From the NCBI RefSeq assembly GCF_048403405.1, contig NZ_CP183129.1: a DNA stretch of 64,000 nucleotides; one strand, given 5' to 3'. This DNA comes from Escherichia coli (GTDB lineage: Bacteria; Pseudomonadota; Gammaproteobacteria; Enterobacterales; Enterobacteriaceae). Of this stretch, positions 47,770-56,860 are shown in pieces (position 1 is the stretch's first letter; each line of letters begins with the position of its first letter). Under the pieces are notes generated by a model. That model did not search any database, was not told the origin of the DNA, and saw only the letters and a list, made by a program, of their open reading frames with translations. The position numbers and the translations under genes are program-made.

Positions 47770-49470
47770 TTATTCAATCTCTTCACAGACATCCTGAGTT
47801 AATCGCCGCATAATATCTTTCCTTAACAAAAACTTTTGTATTTTACCTGAGACAGTGCGCGGTAGTTTTTCGATTACCACGATATGTTCAGGATATTTAT
47901 ATTTCGCGATCCGTTTACGGCTAAAAAAAGCCACCACCTCTTCCAGCGATAATGAATGATGCGGCGCTTTAAGCACGACATAAGCGCATGAGCGTTCACC
48001 TAAACGTTCATCGGGCATCGCAACCACACAGGCATCGTGAATTTTAGGATGCTGCAATAAAATATCTTCTACTTCACGGCTGCTAATATTTTCGCCGCCG
48101 CGGACAATAATATCTTTCTTGCGCCCGGTTATTTTTATATAGCCAGCCTCATCCATGCGGCAGAGATCGCCGCTGTAATACCAGCCTTCTTCATCCAGCG
48201 CACGGGCGGTTAATTCAGGTTCATCAAAATACCCCATAAACACATTGGGGCCACGCGAGGCTTCTTCACCTTCGCAACCTGGCGGTAAGGTCTTGCGTGC
48301 GTCATCGACCACTTTAATCTCAACTCCTGCGACAGCGTAACCATCGGTATGCATAAAGCGCGACAAAGGATCATCGAGATTCACCACTGCGTGCGGCGAA
48401 CTTTCTGTGGAACCATAAACACTTAATAATTTAATGCCGCGCTGCTGGCATTCACGCGCCACTTTTTTGGGGATTGTGGTACCGCCGCAAAGAAAGAAAC
48501 GCAGCGCTGAAAGGTCAGCGGGCTGTTTCTCCAGTAAATTCAAAAGATCATAGACAAACGGCGTTGCGCCGAGCATACAGGTGCAACGCTGCTGCTCAAG
48601 CAGCGCGAGACACGCAGCAGGAGTGAAAATATCTAACAACACGCTGCGAGCACCAATTAAAAATGGTGCCGTTACGCCATGCAGAAAGCCCGTTGCATGA
48701 CCAAGTGGCGCAGGCATCATAAAGACATCCTGCCAGGTCAGATTCAACCGCGCGCAATAAGCCCGCTCACTGGCGAGAATATTGTTATGCGTTAGCATCA
48801 CGCCCTTTGGCAGACCCTCGGTTCCGGAGGTAAACAGCACCGCGGCTAATTCATCGCCGTGGACCGTTATCGCCGTGGTCAGAGGAGTATTGTCGGCGAT
48901 AATCTGACTTAATGAGAGAGCAGAGGTGGCGGGAGCCAGTTTGTCCACGCCGACAATTTGTTGTAGTTGTGGAAGCTGATTTTGCAGCGGCAAGATTAAA
49001 TCTACCGGACGCGTTTGTTTAAACAACGTCGGTGCAAAGAACATTTTTGCCTGACACTTATTGAGCACCCACACCAGTTCTGCTTCTCGCCAGGAAGGCA
49101 ACAGCGGCACGGAAACCGCACCGATTTTCAGGCAGGCAAGATAGATAACGGTAAATTCACACCAGCCAGGCAGTTGAAATGCGATGCGATCGCCTGATTC
49201 AATACCCTTCGCTAACATCCAGTTTGCCAGACAGCTCGCGGCGTGATCGAGCGCGCTATAGGTGTACGATGCACCATGATTATCGACCACGGCAATTTTG
49301 TCTGGCATCGCACGAGCGGTCTGCTGCCAGTAATCGGCCAGCGAAGCATCGCCCCATAGCCCTTGCTGACGATACGCCGCACGACGTTGTTCGTTAAACG
49401 TTAATGTCACTTTCATTTTGGACTCTCGAAACAGAGCATCAGGCCCGAGATGCGGGCCTGTGGGATGCAT
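47770..49470 (-). CDS. fadK: Short/medium-chain acyl-CoA synthetase
   Basis: AMP-binding-enzyme family ORF; I kept the track's 566-codon start; the internal ATG at complement 49414-49416 (MKVTLTFNEQ...) is an alternative. Confidence 0.85.
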   Translation of the reverse strand: MHPTGPHLGPDALFRESKMKVTLTFNEQRRAAYRQQGLWGDASLADYWQQTARAMPDKIAVVDNHGASYTYSALDHAASCLANWMLAKGIESGDRIAFQLPGWCEFTVIYLACLKIGAVSVPLLPSWREAELVWVLNKCQAKMFFAPTLFKQTRPVDLILPLQNQLPQLQQIVGVDKLAPATSALSLSQIIADNTPLTTAITVHGDELAAVLFTSGTEGLPKGVMLTHNNILASERAYCARLNLTWQDVFMMPAPLGHATGFLHGVTAPFLIGARSVLLDIFTPAACLALLEQQRCTCMLGATPFVYDLLNLLEKQPADLSALRFFLCGGTTIPKKVARECQQRGIKLLSVYGSTESSPHAVVNLDDPLSRFMHTDGYAVAGVEIKVVDDARKTLPPGCEGEEASRGPNVFMGYFDEPELTARALDEEGWYYSGDLCRMDEAGYIKITGRKKDIIVRGGENISSREVEDILLQHPKIHDACVVAMPDERLGERSCAYVVLKAPHHSLSLEEVVAFFSRKRIAKYKYPEHIVVIEKLPRTVSGKIQKFLLRKDIMRRLTQDVCEEIE

Positions 49471-49472
49471 GA

Positions 49473-49766
49473 TTAGCCGTAGCGAAAATCAATACCGAAG
49501 GTGCCTGCGGGATATTGCCACTGTTCGAGAATAGTGTTACCGCACAGCACCCGACAGGTGCCGCACTCCAGACAACCGGCAGAATCAAAATGAATGTTGC
49601 CGGCATCATCCTGCTTATAAAGTCCGGCAGGGCAGGCTTTCATTAATTTACGGAATTCATTGATATCGGGATTTGCCGCCAAAATGATATGCGGGTGGCC
49701 CTCATCAACATGGAATTTATTGACGCCTAATTTGATGTCGACGTTAACCGTAGCGTTCTGGCTCAT
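49473..49766 (-). CDS. ydiT: Ferredoxin-like protein (FixX family)
   Basis: 97-aa ORF with Cys cluster (CLECGTCRVLCG). Confidence 0.85.
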   Translation of the reverse strand: MSQNATVNVDIKLGVNKFHVDEGHPHIILAANPDINEFRKLMKACPAGLYKQDDAGNIHFDSAGCLECGTCRVLCGNTILEQWQYPAGTFGIDFRYG

Positions 49767-55251: not shown

Positions 55252-55264
55252 CGTGATACTCCTG

Positions 55265-56860
55265 TTAATGAGCCGCTTCAGGCAGGACAAAACCCATCGC
55301 CGCATCGATAAATAATCTTTCGTCCATCAGTTTGAGTTCTGGCGAAATCGCTGGGGTGAAATCCATTTTGTCGAGAATATCTTTTTGTAAATCGACGCCA
55401 GGGGCGATTTCGATTAAATGCAGGCCGTCTTCTTTCAGCGTGAATACTGCGCGCTCAGTGATATAACGAACATCCAGCCCTCGCTCGAGAGCGATTTTTC
55501 CGCTGAAAGTAATTTCCGGTAGTTCCCGAATAAATTTCTTCACCCATCCTTCCTGGACGATATTTAATTTGCCGTCGGTAATTTCTGTTTTTAAACTGCC
55601 CGCAGTTAATGTGCCGCAGAAAACGATTTTCTTCGAAGTGGCACTGATATCAATAAATCCACCGGTGCCCATGATTTTACCATTGAATTTATGCACGCCG
55701 ACGTTACCGTGCTGGTCGACTTCAGCAAAACTCAAATAACAAACATCCAGACCGCCACCGTGATAAAAATCAAACTGGGACGTCATATCCAGAATGGCAC
55801 GGGTATTCACGTTCGCGCCAAAGGCGATCCCCTGTGAAGTAATTCCGCCAATCGGACCTGTTTCTACCGTCAGAATAAAGTCATCAGCACAACCTTCTTC
55901 TCGGGCGACCAGGCCAATGCCGTCAGCAATACCGACGCCGACATTCCCCACCGCGCCTTTACGCATTTCGAATAATGCGCGCCGTGCAACTAATTTACGT
56001 TGGTTTAGGGGCAGGCTAAGTTTGGTGCTGTCATCAAGGGTGAAGTCACCAGAAATAAAGCGGTTAACCGGCGCACCGCCATACAGTTGGGTTTGATCCG
56101 GATCGACCACCACAATATCCACCAGATAACCCGGAATACGGACAGATTTAGGATGCAGCGTGGCTTTCTTAACCATTTTCTGCACCTGCATCATCACAAT
56201 ACCGCCGTTATTGTGCACCGCCTGGGCAATAACCAATGCGTCGAGATACATCACCTCATCTTCAAAAGTGGCGTAGCCTTCGCTGTCGCAGGTGGTAGCG
56301 CGAATGAAGGCGATATCTGGCGCAATCGCTTTGTAATAGAGATATTCTTGGTTATCAAACTCGACCAGTTTAATCAGGTCTTCTTTAGTGACTTCATTCA
56401 GTTTGCCGCCTTGCTGGCGTGGATCAACAAATGTCCCGATGCCAATATCACTAATAATACCAGGCTGGTGGGCTGCGGCGGCGCGTAAGGTTTGTGTAAG
56501 TACACCTTGTGGATAGTTATAAGCAATAATTTTATTTTGTTCTGCGAGATCAGAAATACGCGGCGATTGTCCCCAGTGACCGCATAATGCCCATTTCACC
56601 AGACCTTCTTGTGCCAGCGGACTAATACCACGGTCGGCGCGATCGCCAAGCCCTGTTGGACTAATAATCGATAAATTACGTGGTGTTTGAGTCTGTTTAT
56701 ATTTATCAGCAAGAGCAGTAATTAACGTGGTGGCTTCCAGAATACCGCCGCCAGCGCCTAACACACAAAGTGTTGCTTCGTCGGGAATATAATTCACCGC
56801 TTCCTGTGCCGACAGGACCGGCACTCGTCCATTAATACGAGGTGGTTTTACAGGTTTCAT
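55265..56860 (-). CDS. ydiF: Acyl-CoA:acetate CoA-transferase (fused alpha/beta)
   Basis: 531-aa ORF. Confidence 0.9.
   Translation of the reverse strand: MKPVKPPRINGRVPVLSAQEAVNYIPDEATLCVLGAGGGILEATTLITALADKYKQTQTPRNLSIISPTGLGDRADRGISPLAQEGLVKWALCGHWGQSPRISDLAEQNKIIAYNYPQGVLTQTLRAAAAHQPGIISDIGIGTFVDPRQQGGKLNEVTKEDLIKLVEFDNQEYLYYKAIAPDIAFIRATTCDSEGYATFEDEVMYLDALVIAQAVHNNGGIVMMQVQKMVKKATLHPKSVRIPGYLVDIVVVDPDQTQLYGGAPVNRFISGDFTLDDSTKLSLPLNQRKLVARRALFEMRKGAVGNVGVGIADGIGLVAREEGCADDFILTVETGPIGGITSQGIAFGANVNTRAILDMTSQFDFYHGGGLDVCYLSFAEVDQHGNVGVHKFNGKIMGTGGFIDISATSKKIVFCGTLTAGSLKTEITDGKLNIVQEGWVKKFIRELPEITFSGKIALERGLDVRYITERAVFTLKEDGLHLIEIAPGVDLQKDILDKMDFTPAISPELKLMDERLFIDAAMGFVLPEAAH

Follow-up and report, generated by a model that had tools for sequence, protein, structure and literature searches.

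A conserved ydi-aroD gene unit of Escherichia coli as a tentative CoA-dependent system for shikimate or quinate respiration

This report concerns a 64,000-nucleotide stretch of Escherichia coli DNA from contig NZ_CP183129.1 (hereafter the window) and, within it, the run of genes from ydiF to fadK together with its neighbours aroD, ydiB, ydiN, ydiM and ydiL. Judged by gene order across species, ydi(L)M-ydiN-ydiB-aroD and ydiFO/ydiP/ydiQRST-fadK are one conserved unit. We think it an evenly balanced question whether this unit encodes a quinol-linked, coenzyme A (CoA)-dependent reductase for shikimate- or quinate-derived acids. We also put forward, more tentatively, the wider proposal that the ydi(L)MN-ydiB-aroD-ydiFO-ydiP-ydiQRST-fadK genes of E. 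coli, Salmonella, other enterics and Sutterella may constitute an unrecognised, CoA-dependent “shikimate/quinate respiration”, i.e., a third sibling of the Cai/Fix and Car systems and the missing enzyme for shikimate respiration by Sutterella wadsworthensis.

Genes of the locus

Gene coordinates were taken from the RefSeq annotation of an identical record, and open reading frames (ORFs) with matching ends were found in the window. The genes on which the argument depends are as follows:

fadK, 47770-49416, minus strand: medium/short-chain acyl-CoA synthetase, an AMP-forming ligase of 548 amino acids according to the Prokaryotic Genome Annotation Pipeline (PGAP)
ydiT, 49473-49766, minus strand: FixX-type ferredoxin-like protein
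ydiS, 49763-51052, minus strand: FixC-type flavin adenine dinucleotide (FAD) protein with the quinone-binding domain of electron-transfer flavoprotein (ETF)-quinone oxidoreductase (ETF-QO)
ydiR, 51108-52046, minus strand: ETF large subunit (alpha/FixB-type)
ydiQ, 52066-52830, minus strand: ETF small subunit (beta/FixA-type)
ydiP, 53146-54057, plus strand: AraC-family regulator with a cupin ligand domain and an AraC domain
ydiO, 54100-55251, minus strand: acyl-CoA dehydrogenase (ACAD)-family flavoprotein with three ACAD domains
ydiF, 55265-56860, minus strand: family I CoA-transferase with fused alpha and beta halves
aroD, 57005-57763, minus strand: type I 3-dehydroquinate dehydratase, outside the range of the preliminary description of this DNA
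ydiB, 57794-58660, minus strand: NAD-dependent quinate/shikimate dehydrogenase
ydiN, 58672-59937, minus strand: major facilitator superfamily (MFS) transporter
ydiM, 60164-61378, minus strand: MFS transporter, 36% identical to YdiN

All eight family assignments from fadK to ydiF were confirmed by Pfam and NCBIfam, with E-values from 1e-18 down to 0. For example, YdiS matches PF21162 with 38.4 bits (cutoff 27.7), and FadK matches the NCBIfam equivalog for medium-chain fatty-acid--CoA ligase, NF004758, with 1088 bits (cutoff 736). Crystal structures of YdiF have been deposited (2AHU, 2AHV and 2AHW). The preliminary description had named the same eight genes, in the same order and with the same protein families, and ORFs, RefSeq annotation and Pfam/NCBIfam all bear it out. 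It had also called substrate and direction not settled, which is fair, as the K-12 RefSeq record keeps the label “putative” for YdiF, YdiO, YdiQ, YdiR and YdiS. Its interval, which ends at the fadK stop codon (47770) and the ydiF start codon (56860), was drawn too narrowly, omitting aroD, ydiB, ydiN and ydiM although these belong to the conserved unit.

Six complete E. coli chromosomes match the 11 kb from 47000 to 58000 at 100% identity, and 5348 of 5426 E. coli genomes contain at least 80% of this sequence. The ydiF-fadK locus is a core region of the E. coli chromosome and is already annotated. In a megablast search, the same 11 kb matched each E. coli genome at a median of two places.

The start of fadK differs between annotations: PGAP uses the ATG at 49416 (548 amino acids), while K-12 RefSeq uses the in-frame ATG at 49470 (566 amino acids). 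The NF004758 alignment begins at residue 1 of the short form, and the sequence separating the two possible starts contains a GGCCCG/CGGGCC hairpin (49442-49458). Longer ORFs for ydiQ (a TTG extension to 52929) and ydiO (to 55305) were ruled out: in both genes an AGGAG ribosome-binding site precedes the annotated ATG (at 52830 in ydiQ) and the family model aligns from residue 1.

Conservation with quinate and shikimate genes

A scan using one genome per species gave 80 named loci, onto which all proteins of the window were mapped. Wherever a YdiO orthologue reached at least 79% identity and the flanking sequence sufficed, ydiN, ydiB, aroD, ydiF and ydiO follow each other in this order, co-directionally and with short gaps. 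This string is found in about 40 species of at least 10 genera (Escherichia, Citrobacter, Kosakonia, Intestinirhabdus, Yersinia, Brenneria, Dickeya, Serratia, Prodigiosinella, Symbiopectobacterium and others), and ydiM is upstream of ydiN in 33 of the 42 orthologous loci. Two Betaproteobacteria, Sutterella seckii and S. wadsworthensis, carry ydiTSRQ, a spacer and then ydiN-ydiB-aroD-ydiF-ydiO, all among unrelated flanking genes, and neither ydiP nor fadK is present in these two loci. YdiF, YdiO and YdiB are 75-84% identical between E. coli and Sutterella, compared with 42-67% for the ETF parts. In two more loci (L007 and L008, whose YdiO relatives are 83% and 77% identical), genes for shikimate dehydrogenase and/or type I dehydroquinase sit between the ETF genes and the ydiS/ydiT homologues. 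Among the mapped loci, ydiF, aroD and ydiB are all absent from the CaiA loci and from paralogous YdiO-like clusters (70% identity or less), the latter having a CaiB-type transferase and other partners instead.

In the S. wadsworthensis locus (L044), the nine-gene cluster occupies positions 183-11149. It also contains a 1.36-kb stretch (3655-5018) with no ORF of 90 amino acids or more, located between the divergent ydiQ and ydiN homologues. Either the remains of a regulator gene or an extensive regulatory region could account for this stretch.

A second search was seeded with YdiF and sampled six loci at 60-76% identity, four of which contain shikimate dehydrogenase and/or dehydroquinase. One of them (L090) has two shikimate dehydrogenase genes along with a YdiO-like ACAD, and the other three (L091, L092 from Sedimentibacter and L095 from Anaerovirgula) have a type II dehydroquinase, which is not homologous to AroD; the Anaerovirgula locus adds a type I dehydroquinase and a shikimate dehydrogenase. 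The remaining two (L093 and L094) have neither shikimate dehydrogenase nor dehydroquinase, and L094 is preceded by four carboxylesterase genes. Because the dehydroquinase has been replaced by a non-homologous type beside the same CoA-transferase family, the comparison argues that the association of CoA-transferase and dehydroquinase is functional.

Two other observations came from the YdiF relatives. In the Firmicutes loci (L091, L092, L094 and L095), a MaoC dehydratase and an ApbA-type reductase accompany the YdiF-like CoA-transferase, usually with a glyoxalase-like protein of about 130 amino acids and the type II dehydroquinase, and this set looks like an uncharacterised hydroaromatic-CoA pathway that does without ACAD and ETF. 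One predicted protein (P0176, 651 amino acids, from a 4.1-kb metagenome contig) combines Shikimate_dh_N and CoA_trans domains and is 82% identical to YdiF; it may be either a true fusion or a gene-calling artefact.

Relationship to known systems

By sequence, the closest system to the ydi locus is the paralogous CaiA/FixABCX crotonobetainyl-CoA reductase. YdiO is 48% identical to CaiA (annotated as crotonobetainyl-CoA reductase), YdiQ 55% to FixA, YdiR 44% to FixB, YdiS 62% to FixC, YdiT 63% to FixX and FadK 29% to CaiC, so the FixABCX-like architecture that had been proposed for the locus holds, at 44-63% identity to the E. coli Fix proteins. Both systems have an ACAD-family reductase, FixA-B-C-X paralogues in identical order and a 4-nt overlap of the C and X genes, and the transporter, ATP-dependent priming CoA ligase and CoA-transferase of Cai/Fix have counterparts in the ydi locus. 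They differ in that CaiB is a family III CoA-transferase whereas YdiF belongs to family I, in that the ydi unit lacks a CaiD-type hydratase and adds YdiB and AroD, and in that the regulator is the AraC-type YdiP instead of CaiF.

At the position of the catalytic glutamate of medium-chain acyl-CoA dehydrogenase, both YdiO (RIGGGTDEI) and CaiA (VSGGSDEM) have glycine, and a Thermus thermophilus ACAD reads IYEGTSEI there. E241 of YdiO is invariant in YdiO orthologues and aligns with the glutamate of the CaiA “HER” sequence in the (M/H)ER segment; we take it to be the probable catalytic base, by analogy with isovaleryl-CoA dehydrogenase.

The logic of caffeate respiration by Acetobacterium woodii CarABCDE resembles that proposed for the ydi system: in both, a CoA-transferase loop primed by a ligase would serve an ETF-linked enoyl-CoA reductase of the ACAD type that acts on a plant-derived enoate. 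CarD is the top solved-structure match of YdiQ (87.8 bits), and CarC matches YdiO. However, CarDE is a soluble bifurcating ETF (REGV in CarD versus FDNA in YdiQ) and lacks the FixC/FixX-type quinone link. The Thermotoga maritima EtfABCX complex (7KOE) and the FixABCX of nitrogen fixers have the same four subunits as YdiQRST, with matches of 243 bits between YdiS and EtfC (7KOE_C) and 56.7 bits between YdiT and EtfX, and the T. maritima EtfC/YdiS-type subunit joins its complex to menaquinone. These complexes bifurcate electrons from NADH to ferredoxin and quinone and have two [4Fe-4S] clusters. In YdiQRST, by contrast, the bifurcation motifs are missing, there is a single cluster site, and the partner is an acyl-CoA dehydrogenase.

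As in the proposed ydi chain, electrons move linearly between acyl-CoA and quinone in the mitochondrial/Paracoccus route from ACAD via ETF to ETF:ubiquinone oxidoreductase. YdiS, which has the quinone-binding domain of ETF-QO, matches the porcine enzyme (2GMH), and non-bifurcating ETF beta subunits align with the C-terminal portion of YdiQ. Unlike classical ETF-QO, the ydi version is split into YdiS (FAD) and YdiT (Fe-S), is expressed anaerobically according to the literature and probably runs in the reductive direction.

Shikimate is handled as a CoA thioester in the ansJKLM-chcA pathway of Streptomyces collinus and Alicyclobacillus, which leads to cyclohexanecarbonyl-CoA. Reduction or dehydration of the ring double bonds takes place on this thioester and involves an acyl-CoA dehydrogenase-like enzyme, but the pathway is biosynthetic and NADPH-driven and has no ETF or quinone link. 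The shikimate-induced reductase of Eggerthella lenta would carry out the net reaction that we propose for ydi, i.e., reduction of the shikimate enoate as a respiratory acceptor (10.1101/2022.12.26.521950), but it is CoA-independent, FccA/UrdA-like and unrelated in sequence to YdiO/YdiQRST.

The collected loci also include a third family of Cai/Ydi-like modules: L005/L050 (E. albertii), L046, L047, L052, L053, L004/L049 and L003 (Desulfovibrio desulfuricans). These combine a YdiO-like ACAD (62-70%) with a divergent second ACAD, a CaiB-type CoA-transferase, an MFS transporter and ETF, usually with FixC/X and a ligase and often with a desulfoferrodoxin-domain gene.

Electron transfer by YdiQRST

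We consider it likely that YdiQRST forms a linear electron chain linked to quinone, without bifurcation. The preliminary description had offered electron bifurcation as one reading of the locus, and it is this part that fails. According to work on T. maritima EtfABCX (PMC10734219), three motifs surround the bifurcating FAD of group-2 ETFs. The small subunit contributes RxGV and GxxSPTxV, and the large subunit contributes RPxFGG, where the Arg is not diagnostic by itself. In residue-level alignments, the RxGV position of YdiQ is occupied by F26-D-N-A29, while CarD, LctB and Clostridioides difficile EtfB have REGV or RDGV. GxxSPTxV has no match in YdiQ; this region is covered when YdiQ is aligned with non-bifurcating ETFs but lies beyond the end of its alignments with bifurcating ones. 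At the RPxFGG position, YdiR reads H124-R-M-Y-G-G129, keeping the Arg and both Gly but lacking the Pro and having Tyr in place of Phe.

The same is true of the family at large. Among the YdiQ/FixA-like and YdiR/FixB-like proteins of the collected loci, RxGV is missing from 81 of 83, GxxSPTxV from all 83 and RPxFGG from 82 of 84. The only positives belong to a separate ETF pair in two Hungatella loci (LIRAGVPS and RPAFGG), which is 25-28% identical; this group-2 pair is a positive control, showing that the motif test works. The two Hungatella loci (L060 and L062) thus hold ETF pairs of both the YdiQR/FixAB type and the classical bifurcating type, beside a YdiO-like ACAD and two FixC-like genes.

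The ferredoxin-like subunit was compared in the same way. YdiT has five cysteines (C45, C65, C68, C71 and C75), comprising one CxxCxxCxxxC motif and a distal Cys-Pro, which corresponds to one [4Fe-4S] site. E. coli FixX has four cysteines, and T. maritima EtfX has nine and two clusters; YdiT lacks three cysteines of the first cluster motif.

In a bifurcating system, a second FAD in YdiQR would take electrons from NADH, to be divided between enoyl-CoA or quinone and a low-potential ferredoxin, as in Bcd/EtfAB, CarCDE and the FixABCX of nitrogen fixers. The four-subunit composition is that of bifurcating FixABCX/EtfABCX, T. maritima EtfC and EtfX are the best solved-structure matches of YdiS and YdiT, and the best solved-structure matches of YdiQ and YdiR are also bifurcating ETFs. 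However, canonical non-bifurcating ETFs score nearly as well and align better over the YdiQ C-terminus. With RxGV and GxxSPTxV absent and RPxFGG degenerate across the whole YdiQR/E. coli FixAB family, in a test that does find a true group-2 ETF, and with three cluster cysteines missing from YdiT, we regard bifurcation as very improbable.

A shared upstream element

Three promoter regions of the locus carry a common cis element, scored with an 18-nt position weight matrix (PWM) that was built from ydiQ sites only and scanned over 127,966 window positions. The three best PWM matches in the window are the following:

TGCAAGATTGTTGGCAAG, 52939-52956, minus strand: cis element 109-126 nt upstream of the ydiQ ATG, best match (score 28.2)
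TGCAATATTCCTGGAAAC, 60052-60069, minus strand: copy 115-132 nt upstream of the ydiN ATG, on the gene strand, second-best match (score 18.0)
TGCAACATTATTGGAAAG, 61918-61935, plus strand: inverted copy 86-103 nt upstream of the ydiL ATG, third-best match (score 17.6)

The octamer TGCAAGAT is present in 30 of 30 ydiP-ydiQ spacers examined, and the consensus of the ydiQ sites is TTTTTTTGCAAGAT(T/A)GTTGG(T/C)AAC. This spacer contains a second copy of the 11-mer (53019-53029), and no exact 11-mer (ACAATCTTGCA) was found outside it. Upstream of ydiN, 32 of 38 species have a PWM score above the 95th percentile of shuffles and 23 of 38 a score above the 99th, and the best match is on the gene strand in all 38, mostly at -129 to -142. 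Upstream of ydiL, the element has a fixed position of about -99 to -109 in approximately 26 of 33 species; in the window, this copy sits 33 nt past the 3' end of the small RNA gene rprA. The exact octamer upstream of ydiN is restricted to Escherichia and one metagenome-assembled genome, with the diverged conserved copies found by the PWM alone. Because the three promoter regions carry this shared conserved element, ydiL-M, ydiN-B-aroD and ydiQRST-fadK are probably one regulon.

Scans for consensus promoters and terminators did not outperform shuffled sequence (11 found versus 11.9 expected, and 18 versus 13.4), and the regulatory claims made here therefore use cross-species conservation only. 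An Rfam scan of 44000-61000 returned no match, and a by-eye, non-systematic look upstream of ydiQ revealed no sigma-54, FNR or CRP consensus.

Proposed pathway and alternatives

S. wadsworthensis and E. lenta have been reported to grow with shikimate as a respiratory acceptor, the enoate being reduced to “hydro-shikimate” (Little et al., bioRxiv 10.1101/2022.12.26.521950). The same study describes a shikimate-induced flavin reductase, apparently in E. lenta, but it names no enzyme for Sutterella and never mentions acyl-CoA or ETF enzymes, and its supplement contains no Sutterella expression data. Activities of YdiB and AroD on quinate/shikimate-type substrates are known from the literature. 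According to reviews, ydiB, aroD and ydiN are up-regulated in shikimate-overproducing E. coli, and a separate transcriptome of a shikimate overproducer has ydiQ, ydiR, ydiS and ydiT among at most 50 up-regulated genes; we treat these expression data as weak hints of a hydroaromatic role. In the literature that we searched, no paper links ydiB or ydiN functionally with ydiF, ydiO or ydiQRST.

We infer the substrate and direction of the following scheme from the gene set and its relatives. YdiN/YdiM would import quinate or shikimate, and YdiB with AroD would convert quinate via 3-dehydroquinate and 3-dehydroshikimate to shikimate. FadK would then prime the CoA ester with ATP, and YdiF would recycle CoA from the product to fresh substrate. 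Shikimate is an alpha,beta-unsaturated acid and shikimoyl-CoA would therefore be an enoyl-CoA, so YdiO could reduce the C1=C2 enoyl bond of shikimoyl-CoA or of a close relative. Electrons would flow linearly from (mena)quinol to YdiS (FAD), YdiT ([4Fe-4S]), YdiQR (FAD) and YdiO, making the hydroaromatic acid an anaerobic electron acceptor. The enoyl-CoA/acyl-CoA couple lies at approximately -10 mV, above menaquinone at approximately -74 mV, so reduction by menaquinol would be downhill. YdiP would be the likely sensor, acting at the shared element. The reported short-chain fatty-acid and butyrate activities would be a second or side activity, with the same redox chain run oxidatively, and hydroaromatic reduction and fatty-acid oxidation could both be true of the locus.

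The strongest competing reading is the published view, in which butyrate and other fatty acids of short or medium chain length are activated by FadK (with YdiF), YdiO oxidises the resulting acyl-CoA, electrons pass via ETF and YdiS/YdiT to quinone and then to nitrate or tetrathionate, and aroD and ydiB are unrelated. It is a serious possibility, although one that we find somewhat doubtful. According to reviews and other secondary sources, the locus is an “anaerobic beta-oxidation” set or acyl-CoA dehydrogenase complex (Campbell 2003; Morgan-Kiss & Cronan 2004), ydi genes serve in an engineered reversal of beta-oxidation (Gulevich 2016) and Salmonella ydiQRSTD is a butyrate-utilisation operon lost in typhoidal serovars (Bronner 2018; Nuccio & Baumler 2014); ydiO is also reported to be important in a fadE mutant. 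The preliminary description's “anaerobic beta-oxidation” agrees with this assignment and is not new, and the locus finding as originally written was already known. FadK passes the medium-chain fatty-acid--CoA ligase equivalog, and the closest solved structures to YdiO include short-chain and butyryl-CoA dehydrogenases. However, there are no genes for hydratase, 3-hydroxyacyl-CoA dehydrogenase or thiolase between ydiK and ppsA (fadIJ being elsewhere in the genome, according to the literature), the Sutterella unit has no fadK, the closest characterised paralogue of YdiO (CaiA) is a reductase, and oxidation of acyl-CoA by menaquinone is uphill by established redox potentials. The published view also leaves unexplained the linkage of ydiN-ydiB-aroD to ydiF-ydiO in about 40 species including Sutterella, the interleaved genes of L007 and L008, the YdiF relatives beside type II dehydroquinase and the shared element.

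Alternatively, two modules might merely travel together: ydiNB-aroD for aromatic biosynthesis or salvage, and ydiFO-P-QRST-fadK for a separate substrate that is neither hydroaromatic nor a fatty acid, with the element being the site of a global regulator. In keeping with this, the aroD-ydiF junction has a hairpin and no shared element, aroD is required for biosynthesis (as is well established) and the remoter YdiO-like clusters have other partner genes. Yet the association survives rearrangement (L007 and L008), transfer to another class (Sutterella) and replacement by a non-homologous dehydroquinase, and the three best PWM matches in the 64 kb all fall in the ydi neighbourhood, which is not as expected of a global regulator site. 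We judge such co-travelling improbable.

Several points weigh against a hydroaromatic role for the unit. Since Enterobacterales make up most of the approximately 40 species, much of the synteny reflects common inheritance and not independent selection, and a YdiO homologue of 74% identity (L006) stands alone without partner genes. To our knowledge, E. coli has no biosynthetic dehydroquinase besides AroD, and the position of aroD may therefore have nothing to do with catabolism. The 144-nt aroD-ydiF spacer, with its hairpin and lack of an element copy, means that ydiFO may be regulated separately, and binding of YdiP to the shared element is only a guess. The Firmicutes YdiF-type clusters use MaoC and ApbA-type enzymes in place of ACAD and ETF, so the CoA-ester chemistry may differ. 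In E. lenta, the flavin reductase that acts on shikimate is CoA-independent, and the Sutterella genome holds dozens of reductases of this kind (10.1101/2022.12.26.521950). The published links, as given in secondary sources, connect ydiO/ydiQRST/fadK with anaerobic fatty-acid growth and Salmonella ydiQRSTD with butyrate use, and shikimate/quinate reduction by E. coli remains a prediction.

If true, the hydroaromatic proposal would give a coherent physiological role to about ten “y-genes” of the best-studied bacterium, including YdiB, the purpose of which has been puzzling since its structure was solved. Abundant dietary chlorogenate/quinate would provide enterics with a new anaerobic electron acceptor, among them Salmonella, whose host-restricted serovars are marked by the loss of ydiQRSTD, and shikimate respiration by gut Sutterella would gain a candidate enzyme system.

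Transcription units and gene junctions

Two hairpins read from the sequence lie at ends of these genes:

54062-54093, no strand assigned: 10-bp G+C-rich hairpin with arms GGCGGCGCAG / CTGCGCCGCC, in the ydiO/ydiP convergent spacer
47722-47744, minus strand: terminator-like hairpin with a T-rich tail, 3' of fadK and common to the convergent ppsA (stop 47713)

The gene ydiP is divergent from ydiQ (315-bp spacer) and convergent with ydiO (42-nt spacer), and the eight genes therefore form at least three transcription units: ydiFO, ydiP and ydiQRST-fadK. The compact module of eight genes in the preliminary description is thus right as to its genes but is not a single operon, and its “divergent” ydiP is so relative to ydiQ and convergent relative to ydiO. 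The hairpin at 54062-54093 is probably a bidirectional terminator.

Within the units, the gaps are 13 nt between ydiF and ydiO, 19 nt between ydiQ and ydiR, 55 nt between ydiR and ydiS, and either 56 nt (PGAP start) or 2 nt (K-12 start, 49470) between ydiT and fadK. The ydiS stop and ydiT start overlap as ATGA (49763-49766), so the 4-nt overlap noted earlier is real. An ATGA or GTGA overlap is kept in 71 of 75 related FixC/FixX-type gene pairs from several phyla, and K-12 fixC/fixX has the same kind of 4-nt overlap. This conservation makes the suggested translational coupling of ydiS and ydiT plausible, without proving it.

The ydiR-ydiS interval also contains a stem-loop (CCCGCTG / CAGCGGG, 51068-51087) that overlaps the ydiS ribosome-binding site. 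It could modulate translation of ydiS-ydiT or mRNA stability.

The ydiL end of the region

The gene ydiL (DUF1870; 61477-61832, minus strand) has a 1-nt deletion in a poly-A run (61654-61659), which is A6 here and A7 in K-12. Its 118-amino-acid ORF is broken into pieces of 74 and 41 amino acids in this strain. Because the deletion splits the ORF, ydiL is probably a pseudogene here or else the run is a slippage-prone site. Just upstream of ydiL is rprA (61968-62075, minus strand), which matches Rfam RF00034 with 118.5 bits.

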